This document shows, piece by piece, positions 7,928 to 25,572 of a DNA stretch of 30,062 nucleotides. The notes under the pieces were generated by a model. The model saw only the letters and a program-made list of their open reading frames with translations. It had not been told where the DNA came from and made no database searches. The stretch covers positions 1 to 30,062 of the forward strand of contig JANLWJ010000542.1 in the NCBI GenBank assembly GCA_031364455.1, read 5' to 3'. Position 1 is the stretch's first letter. The number at the start of each line of letters is the position of its first letter. Source of the DNA: Actinomycetes bacterium. GTDB taxonomy: Bacteria > Actinomycetota > Actinomycetes > JAHEKZ01. A program made the translations under genes and the position numbers.

Positions 7928-8863
7928 TTGTCTAGCGATTCGAGCGTCATCAACTCAACGCTCGAATTCATTGTCGGGCGACATGGGCGGCTTCTTCTAC
8001 ATGCCGGTGGCTCAGCAGAGCCGGGCGGGCGTGCGGTAGTTGTACATGGCGCCTCCGGCGCTGGCAAGACAACGCTTACTACTGCCCTCGTCCAGAGCGG
8101 GCACGCCTATATCACCGATGAGACGGTCTGCCTAGATCCCGACACGCTCGTCATTGAGCCCTTCACCAAGCCGCTCACCGTCAAGCCCGGGTCGCAAGAA
8201 CTGCTGGCGCATCTGGCGCCACCGCCCGACGAGGTCTCCGAGGGCAGCGGCAACTGGCAGCTCCCACCGGAACGCTTGGGCGGTCCAGCGCTTCCCGACA
8301 CCGCGCTGCGGCCGGCCGTCATCGTGTTCCCGGACGTCGACCCGGATCGCACCGATGTCGAGGCCACACCGGTCTCCCCCGCTCGCGCTGCCTTCGTGCT
8401 CGGCGAGCAGTCGAGCGCGATGTGGGCGATCGAGCCGCGTCCGTTGGCGGCGATCGCCCGGCTCGTCACCGCGGTCCCTGCCTTCCGGGTCTTCTACGGG
8501 AACGCATTCGACGCAGCACCGGTGATCATCAACGAGCTCATGGACGCTGCCCCACCCGACGGGCTCGAGCCGCCCTCCAACCTTCCCCAGCCCGCCCCCA
8601 CCGGAACCGCCGGGCCACGACGCGCCGACGGCGTCGACTGGATCCTGCTCGCAGGCGAAGCCGTTCTCTTTGACGGCGAACACCTGCACCATCTCGACGG
8701 CCCCGGCGCGGCCATCTGGCTCGCCCTCGACGGGGAGCTCGGCCTTCCGGGCGTCGCCGCGGAGCTCGCCGACCACTATGGCGCCGACGCCGACCACGTC
8801 CTGCTCGACGTCGAGGACCTCGTGCGCGTCCTCACCGCACGAAAGCTGATCACCCACCCCTGA
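7928..8863 (+). CDS. HPr-kinase-related P-loop protein fused to a C-terminal PqqD/RRE domain
   Basis: LLLHAG, GASGAGKTT (Walker A), YITDE, PFTKPL. The last ~85 aa follow the PqqD pattern (VLFD..LHHLDGPGAAIWLALDG..VAAELADHYG..DVEDLVRVL). N-terminus is unusually short and the start is uncertain. Confidence 0.82.
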   Translation: MSSDSSVINSTLEFIVGRHGRLLLHAGGSAEPGGRAVVVHGASGAGKTTLTTALVQSGHAYITDETVCLDPDTLVIEPFTKPLTVKPGSQELLAHLAPPPDEVSEGSGNWQLPPERLGGPALPDTALRPAVIVFPDVDPDRTDVEATPVSPARAAFVLGEQSSAMWAIEPRPLAAIARLVTAVPAFRVFYGNAFDAAPVIINELMDAAPPDGLEPPSNLPQPAPTGTAGPRRADGVDWILLAGEAVLFDGEHLHHLDGPGAAIWLALDGELGLPGVAAELADHYGADADHVLLDVEDLVRVLTARKLITHP

Positions 8864-8874
8864 TCGAGGCCTGC

Positions 8875-8921
8875 GATTGGAACCTAGGGGGTTCCTGGTG
8901 CCCCTTAGGTTCCAATCACGG
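8875..8921. repeat. Palindrome copy A (17-bp arms, 9-nt centre)
   Basis: GATTGGAACCTAGGGGG-ttcctggtg-CCCCTTAGGTTCCAATC-acgg; arms are reverse complements with one G/T mismatch. Related to 16730-16776. Confidence 0.85.
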
Positions 8922-14004: not shown

Positions 14005-14063
14005 TGAAAACTTACCCAGCGTTTCGAGCGCTGTGCGGCACCGAAAGGGCGGGTAAGTCTTCA
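14005..14063. repeat. Long-loop inverted repeat between convergent genes (possible terminator or REP-like element)
   Basis: TGAAAACTTACCC (14005-14017) and GGGTAAGTCTTCA (14051-14063), 12 of 13 complementary, 33-nt spacer. Confidence 0.55.
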
Positions 14064-16729: not shown

Positions 16730-16776
16730 GTTGGGAATCTAGGGGGGACTAGGGGCCCCCTAGATTCCGATCACGG
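16730..16776. repeat. Palindrome copy B (13-bp perfect arms, 9-nt centre)
   Basis: GGAATCTAGGGGG-gactagggg-CCCCCTAGATTCC-gatcacgg between divergent genes. Aligns without gaps to 8875-8921. Confidence 0.85.
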
Positions 16777-20626: not shown

Positions 20627-21394
20627 CTAGCTGCGGCGCTGCTTCGCGTGCCGCAGCAGCACCTCGGCAACCTTGTTGCGGTACTCCGGCGTCGTCGACG
20701 GCGGCAGCTCCACCGTGACCGCGGTCTTCACCGGGTACTCGGCGTTGTACCAGGACGTCATCGTCCCGCCACCAGAAACCTGGATGTGTGCGACCGGCAG
20801 GTTGAGGGCGTCCGACAGCCACTGCGTCACCGCTTTGCTGCCACCGGAGAAGTCGACCGACGACAGGGGTTGGTGGATCGACACAATCGTGCGTGGCGCG
20901 TTCTTGGAGAAGAAGCGCACGATGGCGCGGGTCTCCGGCTCGGACGCCGGACGCGGCCCCGACCAGTAGCGCGTGCCCTTGCCCTGATTCACCCACGTCT
21001 TGCTGGGGAAGTTGCGGTTGAGGTCGACGCCGCGTGCATTGACGCGGGTACCGCGGATGCTGCCGTCGGGGTTCATCGTCGGGATCACCCACAGTGCGAC
21101 GTCCTTGACTGGGTCCTTGTTCAGCAGCCGGTCGCGGGTGACCAGGCGTCCCGCCGGTTCGTCCCCGTGCATCTGCCCGAGCACCAGGTAGACGTTCTTG
21201 GCGTCGGGGTCGCCGAGGCAGTAGGCCTTGATGGGGCGCCCCTTGGTCGACTCGCCGATGACCTTCTTGGTCAGGCCGGCTGCGGCATCGGCGCTCCCCG
21301 GGAGCAGCAGTCCGCCAAAGAGGCCGGCGGACGCGGCGGCGGCGCCGGTGAGGCCTGCGCGCGCGAGGAAGGTTCGGCGGTCGATCGGTTCCAT
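20627..21394 (-). CDS. Tat-exported M14 zinc carboxypeptidase, murein-peptide amidase MpaA-like
   Basis: DRRTFL Tat motif from ATG 21394. HGDE, NPDG, RVNARGVDLNRNF, SEPE, SIH, VEL. Confidence 0.88.
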   Translation of the reverse strand: MEPIDRRTFLARAGLTGAAAASAGLFGGLLLPGSADAAAGLTKKVIGESTKGRPIKAYCLGDPDAKNVYLVLGQMHGDEPAGRLVTRDRLLNKDPVKDVALWVIPTMNPDGSIRGTRVNARGVDLNRNFPSKTWVNQGKGTRYWSGPRPASEPETRAIVRFFSKNAPRTIVSIHQPLSSVDFSGGSKAVTQWLSDALNLPVAHIQVSGGGTMTSWYNAEYPVKTAVTVELPPSTTPEYRNKVAEVLLRHAKQRRS

Positions 21395-21536
21395 GGGATC
21401 CAGTATCGGCACGAGTGGGCCGAAACTGTCGCGGCGACCTGAAGACGGTGCCGGGTCGAGGCCGGATGTCGGAGTTCGCCGGACACTGCGAGACCACCGG
21501 AGTAGCGTCCCGAGATCAGCCCTTCAGGGAGAACCC

Positions 21537-22238
21537 ATGCGCCTACTCCGCCCCCTCGCCGCCGGCACTGCGCTCGTCGCAGCGCTCGTCGCAGCGCTCG
21601 CCGCAGGAACGATCCCGGCGCAGGCGAGCCACCTGCCGGAGTCCAACGCAGTGTCGCTGGAGATCCTCGCCGACTACTACCCCGGCTACTGGTGGGACCA
21701 CACCGACATCACCGTCGCCGCCCAGGCGGCCCCCAACGTCCGGCGTCCGCACGTTGCCGCCGTCGCAGATGCCATCGACACGTGGGACTCGGTGCTGCGC
21801 GAGGAGTTCGACGATCTGATCACCCTGACCGACGTCACCGACACTGTCCGCAACCCGCAGCGGGCCGACATCGTCCTGCACTACGTGCCCAAGGCCGGCG
21901 GCGTCGCCTTCGGCGGCTACGCCATCTGCGGCGAGCACCGCTGCCCCAACATCTTGGTGCGCTCTGACTTCAACGTCGGGCAAGGACGTGAGCCCTACAC
22001 CCCGGAGTACCTCGGGCAGGTCACGATGCACGAGATGGGCCACGCCCTCGGACTCGGGCACGCCACCAACCTGCTCGAGAGCACCGACCTGATGGGCTAC
22101 GGCTGGCCCGACCTCGGTGAGCCGGTGCTCTCCGACTGCGACCTCGACGCGCTGCGCTACATCTTCGGGTGGGCGTTCGATGGCAATGACCCGTACCCGC
22201 CACCGGAGAACGGCCCGTACGACTGCTCCCTGGACTGA
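21537..22238 (+). CDS. Secreted metzincin (matrixin/M10-like) zinc peptidase
   Basis: Start moved to ATG 21537 (GGGAG upstream). Signal peptide ending PAQA, HEMGHALGLGH and Met-turn DLM. Confidence 0.88.
   Translation: MRLLRPLAAGTALVAALVAALAAGTIPAQASHLPESNAVSLEILADYYPGYWWDHTDITVAAQAAPNVRRPHVAAVADAIDTWDSVLREEFDDLITLTDVTDTVRNPQRADIVLHYVPKAGGVAFGGYAICGEHRCPNILVRSDFNVGQGREPYTPEYLGQVTMHEMGHALGLGHATNLLESTDLMGYGWPDLGEPVLSDCDLDALRYIFGWAFDGNDPYPPPENGPYDCSLD
21570..21605 (+). repeat. 12-bp in-frame tandem repeat x3 in the peptidase signal peptide
   Basis: GCGCTCGTCGCA x2 plus GCGCTCGCCGCA, encoding ALVA ALVA ALAA. Confidence 0.7.
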
Positions 22239-22290
22239 ACCCGCGTCCCGTCAGCGACTCCGCCCGGGGTCGGACGCTGCCACCTGCGAT

Positions 22291-22366
22291 CGCAGGGAAT
22301 CCACCACTGGCGGATTTCCTGCGATCCAGAGCCCTGCAGAGCCCGAAAACCGCAGGGAATCCGCCA
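22291..22366. repeat. BIME/REP-like element copy 1 (three 16-bp arms, forward-reverse-forward)
   Basis: CGCAGGGAATCCACCA-c-TGGCGGATTTCCTGCG-N27-CGCAGGGAATCCGCCA. Confidence 0.9.
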
Positions 22367-22413
22367 CAAGGGCGCGTCGCGAGCGAACGAGCGCCCTGAG
22401 GTGACCTGACACC

Positions 22414-23031
22414 ATGAACCCCATGCACTCCTCGGACGCCGAACCGGCCAGCCGCGGCCGGGTGAGCGCGCCGACCACCCCGGTGCGGGCCTTCGGCCGC
22501 GTGGCAACTGAGTGCGCCCTCGGTGGCATGTTCTTCGGCGGCCTCTTCGGCGCAGCTGTTGGCGTCGTGTTTGCGGTCGTGGCCGGCATCGACCTGGGTG
22601 CTGAGGGACTCGGGGCCACCGCCGCCCTCATGGTCGCCGGCGCCCCGTCCATGGCGCTGATCGGGTGCGTGGTCGGCATCGTGCTCGGTCTCGGCTACGG
22701 AATCGCGGTCGGCGTCGGGACGGGTGCCGCGATGGCTGCCGTCGCAGGCAACCGGCGCGCTCACTTGCCGGTCGGACCCCTTCGCCTCGTGGCCGCGCTC
22801 GCCGCGGCGCTGAGCGCGTTGATCGGCGTCACGTCCGTCATGCTCCTCAACGGCGGTGGCCGGGCCTCACTCGCCGACGAGCTCCCGCTCGTCTTGACCG
22901 TCCTGGTGGTGTTCGTCCTGGCCCCGGCGCAATCGCGGCGGGGTTCGCCGCGTGGCGGTCCTCGGGGTGGATACCGCCCGTCGAGGACGCCGCCGCACCC
23001 CAGCGGCGCTGACCGCCCACGGTCGCGGTGA
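22414..23031 (+). CDS. Gly/Ala-rich multi-pass membrane protein, function unknown
   Basis: ATG 22414 with GAGG upstream. Four or more hydrophobic segments with GxxxG runs. Lies between repeat copies 1 and 2. Confidence 0.65.
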   Translation: MNPMHSSDAEPASRGRVSAPTTPVRAFGRVATECALGGMFFGGLFGAAVGVVFAVVAGIDLGAEGLGATAALMVAGAPSMALIGCVVGIVLGLGYGIAVGVGTGAAMAAVAGNRRAHLPVGPLRLVAALAAALSALIGVTSVMLLNGGGRASLADELPLVLTVLVVFVLAPAQSRRGSPRGGPRGGYRPSRTPPHPSGADRPRSR

Positions 23032-23064
23032 TCCCGACCGCCCACAGATCGGTCAGCGTCCCTT

Positions 23065-23139
23065 CGCAGGAATCCACCACTGGCGGATTTCCTGCGTTCC
23101 AGAGCCGGACAGAGGCCGAAGACCGCACGGAATCCGCCA
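23065..23139. repeat. BIME/REP-like element copy 2
   Basis: CGCAGGAATCCACCA-c-TGGCGGATTTCCTGCG-N27-CGCACGGAATCCGCCA. Spacer is 21/27 identical to that of copy 1. Confidence 0.9.
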
Positions 23140-23233
23140 GTCGACAATTGTCCACACCGTCGGTGGACGCGGTGCGTCCCCAGATCGGTTGCCGCGTGCC
23201 CGCAACCCCGCCGGCCGTGGCGACGCTTCGTCC

Positions 23234-24340
23234 ATGCCCCGTCCGCTACCCGCCCCAGTGCTCGCCGCCATCGCGGCACGACACGGAGTGATCACGCGCC
23301 AACACCTGCTGAGCCTCGGAGCCAGCGAGAGGAACATCAGCACCTGGGTGCGACGCGGCCAGCTGCGACGACTGTCCGTCGGATGCTTCGCGGAGTCCGC
23401 CCGGTGGGAAGGCGCCGCACCGACCTTGCGGCACACCATGCACGTCTACGGAATCCAACTGAACTCTCCCGACGTCGTGGCCCGATGTGAAACGTCAGCC
23501 GTTACCTGGCAGCTGCCGGTCCGCAGCATCCCCGACCGGCCACAGGTGGTCCGCGCCCCGAACCGTGCACACCTGAACAGTGCGTCCGTGCAACGGCGGC
23601 ACCTGGATCCCGGCCACGCCGTCATGCGAGGTGGTCTCACGACGTTGACGCTGGCGCACACCGTGGTCGATGTTGTCGCTGTCGCCCCCCTTCCTGATGC
23701 GCTGATCACCGTGGACGCGGCACTCCGTGGTGGCCTCCAGCTCACCGACCTCGACGCTGCGATCCGCTCACGAGGCACCTTCACCGGCTGCAGCAACGCC
23801 GCAGCAGCCATCGATGCGGGCGATCCGGCATCGGAGTCCCCCCTCGAGTCGCTCTCCCGAGGACGCGTCATCGAGCGCCGGCTTCCACTTCCCTTGTGCA
23901 ACGTCGTGATCAGGCACCAGAGCAGGGAAGCGCGCGTCGACAAGCTGTGGGCCGAGGACGGTGTCGTCGGCGAGGCCGACGGCAAGGGCAAGTACTCCAA
24001 GGACGACGCCCCGACGGTGATCTGGAAGGAGAAGCGCCGACACGAGTGGCTGGAAGAGCTGGGGTTCGCTGTCCCCCGCTGGGGAATGCCCGAGGTCGGC
24101 GACGACGGCGCTGCCCTTGAGCGCCGCTACCGGAAGGCGGTGGCTACGCAGCGGGCGGTGGGATTCCGGTGGCCCGATGGGGTGACCATGGAGGTGCAAC
24201 GGATACCTGGCGTCGAGCTGCCAGCCCGCGTGCTGGCTGAGGTGCAGCGCCTGGCGGCGTCCGGCTACCCGATCAGCATCGTGGACGCGCCCCGGCGTCC
24301 TGGCGGATCTCCTGCGCTTTGGACGCCGATCAGCGCCTGA
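23234..24340 (+). CDS. AbiEi-type wHTH protein with C-terminal PD-(D/E)XK / DUF559-Vsr-like nuclease domain
   Basis: Start moved to ATG 23234. RHGVITRQHLLSLG..WVRRGQLRRL (AbiEi-like), T.LAHTVVDV, DAALR, then SESPLES, RVDKLW..VVGEADGKGKY, EKRR..LEELGFAVPRW. Confidence 0.82.
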   Translation: MPRPLPAPVLAAIAARHGVITRQHLLSLGASERNISTWVRRGQLRRLSVGCFAESARWEGAAPTLRHTMHVYGIQLNSPDVVARCETSAVTWQLPVRSIPDRPQVVRAPNRAHLNSASVQRRHLDPGHAVMRGGLTTLTLAHTVVDVVAVAPLPDALITVDAALRGGLQLTDLDAAIRSRGTFTGCSNAAAAIDAGDPASESPLESLSRGRVIERRLPLPLCNVVIRHQSREARVDKLWAEDGVVGEADGKGKYSKDDAPTVIWKEKRRHEWLEELGFAVPRWGMPEVGDDGAALERRYRKAVATQRAVGFRWPDGVTMEVQRIPGVELPARVLAEVQRLAASGYPISIVDAPRRPGGSPALWTPISA

Positions 24341-24359
24341 AATCGCAGGCAATCCGCCA
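24301..24359. repeat. BIME/REP-like element copy 3 (two arms), overlapping the AbiEi-nuclease stop codon
   Basis: TGGCGGATCTCCTGCG-N27-CGCAGGCAATCCGCCA. Confidence 0.88.
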
Positions 24360-24425
24360 ATCTGCGCTGGACGCCGGTGGCCCGGTCTGCGCCGCCGCGT
24401 CTGTCAGACGGTGCGGCTCCGTGAC

Positions 24426-24719
24426 TCAAACGGTGATCGCCAGGTCGGCGACCTCGCCCAGCTCGGCGTGCACCGCGCAGTCGACGGACGCTCCAGGCGC
24501 CAGAACCCGCACCGTCCACGCACCAGGCGCCGCGAAGAAGCGGAACTGGCCGGTGGCCGACGTCGGCACCTCGGCGGTGAACTCTCCGGTGCCGTCGAGC
24601 AGCCGGACGTAGGCCGGCGACACCGGCTCGCCTGCGCGCGAGACGATGCCCTGGATCACCGCCTCTTTGGTGGCGTCGACCCCGGTGATGTCTGGTCCTC
24701 CTGCAATGGCTCCGCACAT
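24426..24719 (-). CDS. sseC: DUF1416 protein (SseC-like)
   Basis: MCGA start, AYVRLLDGTGEFTAEVPTSATGQFRFFAAPGAWTVR. Directly downstream of the rhodanese, as in the mycobacterial cysA-sseC pair. Confidence 0.92.
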   Translation of the reverse strand: MCGAIAGGPDITGVDATKEAVIQGIVSRAGEPVSPAYVRLLDGTGEFTAEVPTSATGQFRFFAAPGAWTVRVLAPGASVDCAVHAELGEVADLAITV

Positions 24720-24732
24720 GGTGCTCCCCCTC

Positions 24733-25572
24733 CTAGGATCCGTCGCCGAGCTCGATCGGCACGCCGACCAGCGAGCCGTACTCGGTCCATGAACCGTCGT
24801 AGTTCTTCACGTTCTCGACGCCGAGCAGCTCGTGCAGCACGAACCAGGTGTGCGCCGAACGCTCACCGATCCGGCAGTACGCAATGGTGTCCTTCTCGAG
24901 GTCGACGCCGGCGCCGACGTACAGCGCGGTGAGGTCGTCGTCGGACCTGAAGGTGCCGTCGTCGTTGGCAGCCTTCGACCACGGAATGTTCTTCGCCGTC
25001 GGAATGTGGCCCGGCCGCTGCGACTGCTCCTGCGGCAGGTGCGCCGGCGCGAGCAGGCGTCCGGAGTACTCGTCAGGTGAGCGGACGTCGACGAGGTTCT
25101 GCACCCCGATCGCTTCGAGGACGTCGCCACGGAACGCGCGGATCGAAGTGTCCTGCTCCTGCGCGGTGTACTTCGACGATGGACGCTTGATCACCTCGGT
25201 CGTCAGCTCGCGCGAGTCGAGCTCCCACTTCTTGCGACCACCGTCCAGCAGCTTCACCGACCCGTGCCCGTAGAGGGTGAAGTACCAGTAGGCGTATGAC
25301 GCAAACCAGTTGTTGTTGCCGCCGTAGAGGATGACGGTGTGGTCGTTGCCGATCCCGCGCTCGGAGAGCAACGCCTCGAACGCCGGACGGTCGACGAAGT
25401 CGCGCTTGACCGGGTCCTGCAGGTCGGTCTTCCAGTCGAGGCGGACGGCCCCGCGGATGTGCCCCTTCTCGTACGCCGAGGTGTCCTCGTCGACCTCGAC
25501 AAGGACCACGGTCGGGTCATCAAGGTGCGCCTCGACCCAGTCGGCTTCGACCAATACATCAGTGCGGCTCAT
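24733..25572 (-). CDS. cysA2: Tandem-domain thiosulfate sulfurtransferase (rhodanese, CysA2/CysA3-type)
   Basis: Start ATG 25572 (MSRTDVLV). GHIRGA, LDGGRKKW, active-site CRIGER, YDGSWTEY. Confidence 0.93.
   Translation of the reverse strand: MSRTDVLVEADWVEAHLDDPTVVLVEVDEDTSAYEKGHIRGAVRLDWKTDLQDPVKRDFVDRPAFEALLSERGIGNDHTVILYGGNNNWFASYAYWYFTLYGHGSVKLLDGGRKKWELDSRELTTEVIKRPSSKYTAQEQDTSIRAFRGDVLEAIGVQNLVDVRSPDEYSGRLLAPAHLPQEQSQRPGHIPTAKNIPWSKAANDDGTFRSDDDLTALYVGAGVDLEKDTIAYCRIGERSAHTWFVLHELLGVENVKNYDGSWTEYGSLVGVPIELGDGS

Follow-up and report, generated by a model that had tools for sequence, protein, structure and literature searches.

The nuclease-like gene described here and the palindrome clusters on either side of it (clusters 2 and 3 below) are one compact cassette, in which palindromes are followed by a 95-nt leader, the gene, and further palindromes that overlap its stop codon, and cassettes of this type are widespread in Actinomycetota. 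The gene lies in a window of 30,062 nt, the whole stretch of DNA that was analyzed, from an actinomycete MAG (G000). We favor, with modest confidence, the reading that the gene and its own palindromes form a REPtron-like partnership whose enzyme has no relation to RAYT and whose binding, cleavage, and copying chemistry is predicted.

Palindrome clusters and the 59-nt unit

The 16-nt arm CGCAGGRAATCCRCCA has seven matches at no more than two mismatches in the window (shuffled expectation 0.09), and more than one match is found in 0 of 100 shuffles. The matches form three clusters, none of which has a strand: cluster 1 (22291-22366), with matches at 22291-22306 (+), 22308-22323 (-), and 22351-22366 (+); cluster 2 (23065-23139), with matches at 23081-23096 (-) and 23124-23139 (+); and cluster 3 (24301-24359), with matches at 24301-24316 (-) and 24344-24359 (+). 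An eighth arm, read directly from the sequence, lies at 23065-23079 in cluster 2 and carries a 1-nt deletion, and the original prediction of eight arms in three clusters at these positions is thus confirmed as seven matches and one deletion variant. As was also described there, the gap between the inverted arms is exactly 27 nt in 3/3 clusters, and the third arm in clusters 1 and 2 produces a 33-nt palindrome with a 1-nt center. Cluster 1, which starts 53 nt 3' of the stop of an M10-like peptidase gene, reads as arm, 1 nt, inverted arm, N27, and arm. Cluster 2, also with three arms, is the 5' boundary of the cassette and ends 95 nt upstream of the start codon of the nuclease-like gene, and cluster 3, with two arms in this MAG, is the 3' boundary. 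The stop codon of the gene (TGA, 24338-24340) falls between these two arms, in agreement with its predicted location inside the cluster. The three-arm form of cluster 2 is also present in two relatives, G006 and G007, which keep a third, outer arm in cluster 3 as well, and one clear arm of cluster 2 is seen in G013.

A small dyad, GTCCAC-N7-GTGGAC (23150-23168, no strand; read directly), lies between cluster 2 and the start codon, and a TGTCCACAGC-like motif is retained at its position in G007, G013, and G006; we regard the dyad as a candidate promoter or operator element. A promoter and terminator scan of positions 22200-24500 returns nothing, neither a sigma-70 consensus nor a T-run terminator signature, and an Rfam scan of 21500-25000 gives no match at E up to 1. 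Single-strand folding of the clusters is better than that of shuffles (z -3.0 to -5.8), with DNA folding z values of -3.35 (+ strand) and -4.50 (- strand) for cluster 1 and of -4.24 and -5.75 for cluster 3.

The arm is part of a longer palindrome, a unit of 59 nt with the sequence TGGCGGATTyCCTGCG-N27-CGCAGGrAATCCGCCA. Seventeen distinct units are found in the 3.03-Mb MAG when those on contigs C42 and C377 are counted as one locus, and these copy numbers are lower bounds because the genome is a 569-contig MAG. Three of the 17 lie within 2.1 kb around the nuclease-like gene (P about 2.7e-7), so the enrichment next to the gene that had been anticipated is seen in the genome-wide count. The solo units lie mostly just 3' of the stop codons of unrelated, often convergent genes. 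Alignment of the units shows that they start with TGGCGG and finish with CCGCCA and that the arms carry no GTAG or CGTC tag. The stems show no compensatory changes (83.2% paired versus 84.2% in shuffles; 21 stem pairs, 17 units), and we therefore do not claim selection for an extruded hairpin, RNA, or ssDNA structure. An origin of the solo units as remains of decayed cassettes has no support: a tblastn search with all four paralogues over the 1.5 kb to the left and right of each solo unit gives insignificant matches only.

Domain structure of the nuclease-like protein

The gene (23234-24340, + strand) encodes a 368-aa protein. An AbiEi-type wHTH with the AbiEi C-domain spans aa 4-197, and a PD-(D/E)XK nuclease domain of the Vsr/DUF559 fold occupies aa 198-311; these are followed by a small additional domain (aa 312-353) and by a disordered tail that is encoded by the repeat (aa 354-368). 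Pfam AbiEi_4 matches the protein (E 3.5e-6, 27.5 bits against a cut-off of 25), PADLOC calls it AbiEi, and its AF2 model has a pLDDT of 92.3. Fold matches of the protein are 6y8q (Z 9.7), 3hrl (Z 9.1; rmsd 2.6, 92 aligned), 3r3p (Z 8.9), and 1cw0 (Z 8.1), and the AFDB Swiss-Prot structure matches include YcjD, HI_0925, and V.NmeAIP. Among reviewed proteins, the best whole-protein structural match is the uncharacterized M. tuberculosis Rv2248 (E 1e-16, TM 0.81 by hit, residues 30-310), although the identity is only 21%.

The first 197 residues adopt the AbiEi fold, with AbiEi (6y8q) and Rv2827c (1zel, Z 7.6) as the best structural matches, and the palindromic DNA upstream is a further likeness to the type IV AbiE systems. 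In contrast to AbiE, there is no adjacent AbiEii (DUF1814) nucleotidyltransferase gene, a nuclease domain being fused instead, and the palindromes also mark the gene's 3' end and are dispersed genome-wide. None of the neighboring genes (a TM-rich ORF and DUF1416) gives an AbiEii match, and PF08843 occurs in this MAG on contig C325 only, which agrees with the absence of a toxin partner noted earlier.

Residues 198-311 share their fold and a conserved acidic and lysine motif with Vsr, DUF559 proteins (NGO0050 and YcjD), and I-Bth0305I, and E201, E205, R234, D236, E247, D249, K253, E266, and R282 are invariant in 35 homologues. Unlike these nucleases, the protein has no Pfam DUF559 or Vsr sequence match, its gene is not intronic, no cytosine methyltransferase partner was noted next to it, and the domain is fused to an AbiEi module. 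The nuclease domain reaches no Pfam model by sequence, and neither the 368-aa protein nor residues 195-368 of its homologue P0001 (97% identical) match PF04480 or PF03852 at E up to 1; PF04480 is carried by some distant homologues in the homologue search. A sequence search of solved structures gives chance-level matches only. The orthologue is 368 codons long in five species, with dN/dS of 0.18-0.47. The models point to a DNA binder of the AbiEi fold joined to a nuclease of the Vsr/DUF559 fold, both with predicted functions.

Paralogues with their own palindromes

Three other paralogues in this MAG are each flanked by a different palindrome family, as expected if every paralogue had its own arm sequence. 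The paralogue on C531 has TACGAGAGTTAGCCCCGGA units on both sides, with four further units and a lone arm elsewhere; the paralogue on C148 has a ATGTGAGCGTTMGGTACATC unit upstream and at least four more elsewhere; and the paralogue on C170 is framed by GGCTCTSAACTGACGMTTC arms. A strong hairpin is found within 250 nt of 5/9 AbiEi_4 ORFs, compared to 2.3% of random segments (P 8e-7), under a strict hairpin definition whose census undercounts imperfect units, the window's own included; this census replaced a de novo census of 12-mer repeats, which was too noisy. In the relatives, a long flanking hairpin is present at about 13 of 20 paralogue loci, with matching hairpins on both sides at four or more of them at least, and the arms differ from lineage to lineage. 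Scanning contigs with a profile built from a closer alignment of homologues yielded 51 Actinomycetota loci from many genera, at 30 of which the locus's own two flanks share at least 17/18 nt, compared to 0 of 150 mismatched controls.

Arm variants, solo units, and cassettes in relatives

The arm end CCGCCA is common to the cassette and the dispersed units in G000, G006, G007, and G013. In G001, whose orthologue is 63% identical, both have CCTCCA, and in G009, with an orthologue of 50% identity, both have CCGACA. Fisher tests of this co-variation between arm variant and gene give P values of 4e-4 and 3e-4; the relatives are not independent, and some of the co-variation may stem from common descent or gene conversion. 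The unpublished genome G025 underlies none of the claims made here.

Solo units are gained and lost at orthologous sites. The unit site on C124 is empty in four relatives, and at that on C277 three genomes have the unit and three lack it, so the suggested comparison of empty and filled sites does reveal both states. At two aligned filled sites, the inserts are about 110 and 290 nt and thus exceed the 59-nt unit, so the insertion boundaries are not clean. No target duplication is visible at the unit borders, which are blurred at about 80% identity.

The cassette as a whole also has a history of its own. In G006, a truncated TGAAGAGTTA-type cassette, consisting of the C-terminal 76 aa and its 3' palindrome, abuts the 5' cluster of a window-type cassette, and the 76 aa share 58% identity with the protein of G003 (E 1.6e-21). 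Between G000 and G007, the dS of the nuclease-like gene is 0.083, about 5-10 times lower than that of five neighboring genes (0.42-1.1). The high-identity tract between these two genomes spans 23080-24340, from cluster 2 to cluster 3, and directly 3' of cluster 3 the identity falls to 53-66%. The gene is found beside DUF1416 and rhodanese genes at one locus in at least nine genomes of the genus.

Proposed mechanism and alternative readings

In the partnership that we favor, the AbiEi-type winged helix would recognize the 16-nt arm as a double-stranded half-site, and the fused Vsr/DUF559-type nuclease would nick or cut at the palindrome. Repair or replication of the nicks or cuts would then copy units to new intergenic sites, mostly just 3' of stops, and the same copying would also keep the palindrome family homogeneous, while the whole cassette may occasionally be exchanged or replaced.

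We consider it unlikely that the palindromes are operator or regulon sites only, with the AbiEi-like domain repressing its own gene, the dispersed copies acting as binding sites or decoys, and the nuclease serving another role, such as repair or defense, without spreading the repeats. Autorepression through inverted repeats is already known for AbiEi, which is reportedly an autorepressor that binds them, and the structural matches of aa 1-197 to AbiEi and Rv2827c, the palindrome cluster upstream of nearly every family member, and arms that act as independent consensus half-sites without compensatory changes would all fit such a role. It would leave unexplained the palindrome at or over the gene's stop codon in the window, on C531, and in G009 and G017, as well as the location of the solo units downstream of unrelated genes, their gain and loss at orthologous sites, and a cassette history that differs from that of the flanks.

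Similarly improbable in our judgment is a selfish gene that targets palindromes spread by another route: the nuclease gene would home into a preferred palindrome and would therefore be framed by copies of its target. IS1397 inserts into BIMEs, and free-standing homing endonucleases home likewise. The resemblance of the catalytic domain to the Vsr-like homing endonuclease I-Bth0305I (3r3p, Z 8.9) and the signs of cassette replacement and recent exchange between species are compatible with homing, as are orphan repeat families without a cognate gene, which also count against the favored partnership, namely W-like units in G003, G005, and G010 and T-type units in G000 (T-type arms were taken as exact matches and paired arms only, the one-mismatch pattern being no better than the control). 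Homing is difficult to reconcile with the presence of one copy of the gene for each palindrome family when as many as 17 sites could serve as targets, or with the fixed position of the gene beside DUF1416 and rhodanese. In addition, the flanks are complete units and not split halves, dispersed and flanking copies have species-specific arm variants in common, and no other candidate enzyme was found.

The window order of repeat, gene, repeat, gene, and repeat had suggested that passenger genes are captured as cassettes, and the stretch from the M14 peptidase gene to the cassette does differ between species. An integron-like array, in which the repeats delimit passenger genes that the nuclease captures and moves, is nevertheless highly improbable. 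The membrane-protein gene said to be delimited by the clusters is indeed there, a TM-rich ORF of 205 aa (22414-23031, + strand; GC3 0.85) between clusters 1 and 2. This ORF has no match in Pfam, NCBIfam, or PADLOC, and its homologues in 40 relatives amount to two weak matches (G002, E 3.7e-6; G024, E 9.7e-4), neither of which is placed at this locus. G006 has a TM-rich ORF without significant similarity at the same position and no cluster 1. In G007, a trace of about 17 codons is left from the 3' end of the ORF, and at the position of cluster 1 there is a single inverted arm beside a 23-nt tandem repeat. Because the M10 peptidase gene is adjacent in G004 and G012 as well, it is an ancestral resident of the locus. 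No second passenger gene lies between units at 14 other unit loci, the integron attC cores R''/R' (RYYYAAC / GTTRRRY) are absent from the arms in the unit alignment, and no integrase is found among four flanking ORFs scanned against Pfam. The ORF looks like a resident neighbor outside the cassette, and the best interpretation of cluster 1 is an additional solo copy of the 59-nt unit.

Coincidence, in which generic terminator-like or REP-like hairpins are functionally unconnected to the gene, would suit stable hairpins located mostly just 3' of stop codons, but it has next to no probability, since the T-run terminator signature is absent and the reading is already contradicted by the clustering around the gene, the own palindrome family of each paralogue, the sharing of flanks, and the hairpin enrichment.

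Comparison with known systems

To our knowledge, no short palindromes other than those of REP/RAYT systems have so far been well described as being maintained and propagated by a dedicated enzyme that is inherited vertically. REP/RAYT systems are mainly proteobacterial. The nuclease-palindrome partnership resembles REP/REPIN-RAYT in that a single-copy gene, long resident at one chromosomal locus, is flanked by its own palindromes, which are also dispersed extragenically, in that every paralogue is paired with a repeat family of its own, and in that the repeat variants change together with the gene from species to species. It differs in its enzyme, an AbiEi-wHTH with a Vsr/DUF559-fold PD-(D/E)XK domain in place of the Y1 HUH transposase of RAYT, in its 59-nt units with 16-nt arms that lack the GTAG or CGTC tag, in its low copy numbers (tens at most), in the signs of cassette exchange between species, and in its Actinomycetota host. 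RAYT itself was rejected as the enzyme: the sole Y1_Tnp ORF of G000 is on C100, a 1.9-kb contig of 58% GC without these repeats, and the repeat-bearing relatives do not have it. The Y1 transposase (PF01797) is not found in G006, G007, G013, and G001, which carry the cassette, or in G003. The term BIME-like in the original prediction therefore holds as an analogy only. Its central idea, a wHTH-nuclease tied to its own repeats as RAYT is but with another fold, is strengthened by the separate arm families, the family-wide layout, the arm co-variation, and the filled and empty sites, and it loses the BIME likeness and the capture of passengers.

The mirror-image three-arm cassette ends in G006 and G007 and the dispersal of short non-coding copies recall MITEs and IS elements. 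Unlike these, the cassette has no DDE, serine, or tyrosine transposase, shows no target-site duplication, and keeps its gene as a single copy for each family, at a locus that is stable; Pfam and NCBIfam scans of the flanked gene and its neighbors give no transposase domain. A literature search of incomplete coverage found no description of a partnership between an AbiEi/Vsr-fold nuclease and palindromes, and this combination of repeat and enzyme is apparently undescribed. More tentatively, the cassette may represent a new class of mobile or domesticated DNA, in which a wHTH/Vsr-fold nuclease would copy its own 59-nt palindromes and the palindrome-bounded cassette would be exchanged between species, as an actinobacterial counterpart of REPIN-RAYT with a separate origin in an antitoxin-like binder and a repair-type nuclease.

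The locus makes the idea testable through the species-specific arm variants in cassette and dispersed copies, the displaced older cassette in G006, and the cassette-sized tract of low dS between G000 and G007. If the idea is correct, high-GC Gram-positives would have built a partnership like that of REP and RAYT from unrelated parts. It would provide sequence-specific pairs of nuclease and site with a specificity that the genome sequence itself reveals, and it would account for many actinobacterial intergenic palindromes and for some contig breaks in assemblies. It would also give a function to very many orphan genes annotated as 'AbiEi antitoxin domain' and 'DUF559', including mycobacterial relatives such as Rv2248.

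Arms in the window belong to a dispersed 59-nt palindrome

The original prediction placed eight copies of a 16-nt arm (CGCAGGRAATCCRCCA) in three clusters, 1 (22291-22366), 2 (23065-23139) and 3 (24301-24359), and this count holds, with seven matches at no more than two mismatches, against a chance expectation of 0.09 in the window, and an eighth copy at 23065-23079 carrying a 1-nt deletion. As predicted, inverted arms are separated by 27 nt in every cluster, and the third arm of clusters 1 and 2 forms a 33-nt palindrome. The parent repeat is an imperfect 59-nt palindrome, TGGCGGATTyCCTGCG-N27-CGCAGGrAATCCGCCA, whose dyad symmetry continues partly inward (CTTT...AAAG) around a variable centre. 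The source genome (G000), a MAG of 569 contigs, 3.03 Mb and 65% GC that includes the window as contig C163, contains 17 distinct units spread over 15 contigs (C42 and C377 being a single locus), copy numbers that are lower bounds in so fragmented an assembly, and the third arm is present in about eight of them. Three of the 17 units lie within 2.1 kb around the nuclease-like gene (P ~2.7e-7 against uniform spread). The nearest relatives' records are labelled as Actinomycetes, Actinomycetota or 'Candidatus Nanopelagicales' MAGs.

Most solo units, placed relative to genes by crude GC3-based ORF calls, follow the stop codon of one neighbouring gene or both at a distance of 8-180 nt, and many have convergent genes on their two sides. 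A promoter/terminator scan of 22200-24500 detected no T-run terminator, and Rfam gave no match for 21500-25000 at E up to 1. The clusters fold well as single strands (z -3.0 to -5.8), and no compensatory change was found at 21 stem positions across the 17 units (83.2% paired versus 84.2% in shuffles), so each of the two arms behaves like a separate copy of a single consensus, as would be expected of protein half-sites or young copies more than of a structure maintained by selection. A purely regulatory role of the palindromes seems unlikely.

The comparison of filled and empty sites between genomes, proposed with the original prediction, shows that the C124 and C277 sites vary, with blurred borders. 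The C124 unit is part of ~290 nt of additional sequence missing from G007, G013, G009 and G001; the C277 unit is part of ~110 nt shared by G000, G006 and G007 that G013, G009 and G001 lack. The C351 unit is common to G000, G006 and G007, and the C111 unit to G000, G013, G007 and probably G006. No gene remnants were found beside the solo units of G000.

Paralogues are accompanied by palindromes of their own

G000 encodes three paralogues of the gene and nine AbiEi_4 ORFs in all. The window's arm is absent from every other paralogue of this genome, and each of the three has a different palindrome, in line with the expectation that every paralogue might own an arm sequence. The C531 gene has 61-nt TACGAGAGTTAGCCCCGGA units on both sides, with more on C28, C111 and C423; the C148 gene has a ATGTGAGCGTTMGGTACATC unit upstream, with others on C14, C52, C326 and C505; and the C170 gene has GGCTCTSAACTGACGMTTC arms on both sides. 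A fourth family of dispersed hairpins (CGTGTGAGTTCGCCGGGG-loop-CCCCGGCGAACTCACACG, 42-58 nt) has eight copies, on C180, C244, C263, C28, C387, C418, C429 and C510, and related hairpins (C276:6834-6875 and C96:2794-2847) stand directly upstream of two more distant AbiEi_4/DUF559-type genes. Under a strict definition that overlooks the window's own imperfect units, a strong hairpin occurs within 250 nt of 5 of the 9 AbiEi_4 ORFs, compared with 2.3% of random 1-kb segments (P 8e-7). Another palindrome, GATTGGAACCTAGGGGG...CCCCTTAGGTTCCAATC, has two copies in the window (8875-8921 and 16730-16776) and is unlike all of these families in sequence.

The layout recurs in other genomes, of which the related ones are not independent samples. 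Among 20 paralogue loci of relatives, a long hairpin flanks about 13, at least four are bordered by matching hairpins left and right, and the arms are lineage-specific. Across 51 loci from many genera, including Flexivirga, Jatrophihabitans, Leucobacter, Gordonia, Stackebrandtia and Leifsonia, the upstream and downstream flanks of the same locus agree in at least 17 of 18 nt at 30, compared with none of 150 mismatched pairs.

The sole RAYT-like ORF of G000 (C100:827-1678; 283 aa; Pfam Y1_Tnp, 44.9 bits) scores 76.4 bits with NCBIfam REP_Tyr_transpos, just below the cut-off of 80. Its 1.9-kb contig has 58% GC against the genome mean of 65%, carries none of the repeats studied and probably represents foreign DNA or contamination at binning; a RAYT therefore has no part as the enzyme of the repeats.

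The gene encodes a predicted fusion of a winged helix and a Vsr-fold nuclease

The gene (23234-24340, + strand) encodes 368 aa, in which Pfam detects only AbiEi_4 (residues 10-53); PADLOC AbiEi models also match. In an AlphaFold2 model built on an alignment of 35 homologues (mean pLDDT 92.3), residues 4-197 match the AbiEi antitoxin (6y8q, Z 9.7) and Rv2827c, and residues 198-311 share the fold of the DUF559 protein NGO0050 (3hrl; Z 9.1, rmsd 2.6), the Vsr-like homing endonuclease I-Bth0305I (3r3p; Z 8.9) and Vsr (1cw0; Z 8.1). Among reviewed proteins, M. tuberculosis Rv2248 is the best match in the structure search. Residues E201, E205, R234, D236, E247, D249, K253, E266 and R282 do not vary among the 35 homologues, even at 27% identity, and the orthologue is intact and of equal length in five species (dN/dS 0.18-0.47). 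A homing-type gene that targets pre-existing palindromes seems as unlikely as a purely regulatory role.

The stop codon (24338-24340) falls within cluster 3, as originally noted: the last 15 codons (24295-24340, + strand) consist of the left arm and spacer of that cluster, and the C-terminal 11-15 residues coded by it are modelled as disordered. In the C531 paralogue, too, translation stops within the 3' unit, and an arm lies 11 nt past the stop codon of the C170 paralogue. The reported lack of an adjacent AbiEii toxin partner stands. The two AbiEii (PF08843) genes of the genome are both on C325 (4487-5062 and 6606-7058), which also carries several repeated segments, and may be parts of genuine AbiE toxin-antitoxin pairs that have nothing to do with the cassette (cluster 2, gene and cluster 3).

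Signs of cassette exchange and displacement at an old locus

The gene is an old resident beside long-standing DUF1416 and rhodanese neighbours. Its orthologues in G007, G013 and G006 are 92%, 90% and 84% identical and share its arms, and that of G001 is 63% identical in the same orientation. The homologues at the locus in G003, G004 and G012 are 44-49% identical and in opposite orientation, despite DUF1416 proteins 76-89% identical; a G010 homologue (47%) lies beside an M14 gene. Within each genome of the window-type lineage (W), cassette-flanking and dispersed units carry one arm variant: CCGCCA in G000, G006, G007 and G013, CCTCCA in G001 and CCGACA in G009 (Fisher P 4e-4 and 3e-4 for the latter two versus G000), indicating that dispersed copies were renewed from, or homogenised with, the local cassette after the species split.

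A second cassette type (T), with arms starting TGAAGAGTTA, is present in G003, G005 and G010. G006 retains its C-terminal 76 codons, which share 58% identity with the G003 protein (E 1.6e-21) and 38-40% with W proteins. The remnant keeps its 3' palindrome and breaks off precisely where the 5' three-arm cluster of the W cassette lies, showing that part of one cassette was displaced by another. A T-type gene is lacking in G000, which has orphan T-type units in the window (GTGAAAACTTACCC...GGGTAAGTCTTCA, 14005-14063, directly past a stop codon) and at C296:13046-13105 and C284:9331-9390.

Between G000 and G007, the gene has a dS of 0.083, whereas five neighbouring genes on both sides have 0.42-1.1. 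The same gene has dS values of 0.30 and 0.44 against G013 and G006, so intrinsic constraint does not account for the low value. High identity extends from ~23080 to 24340, cluster 2 to cluster 3, with 53-66% identity just outside, indicating that the cassette was exchanged between these lineages after the flanking chromosome had diverged. The cassette ends of G006 and G007 are mirror images: [arm, inverted arm, N27, arm], gene, [inverted arm, N27, arm, inverted arm]. To its left, the locus may have a separate history. The M14-type peptidase gene (20627-21412) shows 72% amino acid identity to that of G007 and dS 1.1, with 0.42-0.74 for the other neighbours.

The suggestion that the repeats capture passenger genes, such as the membrane ORF (22414-23031, + strand) between clusters 1 and 2, as cassettes lacks support and is very improbable: the M10 peptidase gene is a neighbour in G004 and G012 too, and in G006, which lacks cluster 1, a TM-rich ORF of comparable size occupies a similar position. 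In G007, about 17 codons of the membrane ORF 3' end remain, and cluster 1 and the rest of the ORF are replaced (locus L005, about 7960-8100) by a rearranged single inverted arm followed by four tandem copies of a 23-nt repeat (AGCGTCCGACCCCGGGCGGAGC), the reverse complement of the window sequence just left of cluster 1, which suggests inversion and deletion between arms. Cluster 1 is most simply taken as a solo three-arm unit near the cassette.

A proposed REPtron-like partnership between gene and palindromes

Coincidence, set against the 30 agreeing loci, is the least probable reading of all. No description of a nuclease-repeat partnership was found in the full-text literature searched (AbiEi, DUF559, RAYT, REPIN, Actinobacteria, Rv2248), where DUF559 is seldom mentioned. 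The best-supported reading, which we favour with some reserve, is a REPtron-like partnership of the gene and its palindromes, and we infer its binding, cutting and copying chemistry. The AbiEi-type winged helix would recognise the arm as duplex DNA, and the fused Vsr-fold nuclease would nick or cut at the palindromes. The ensuing repair or replication would copy units into new intergenic sites and homogenise them, and the cassette itself would now and then be replaced or exchanged.
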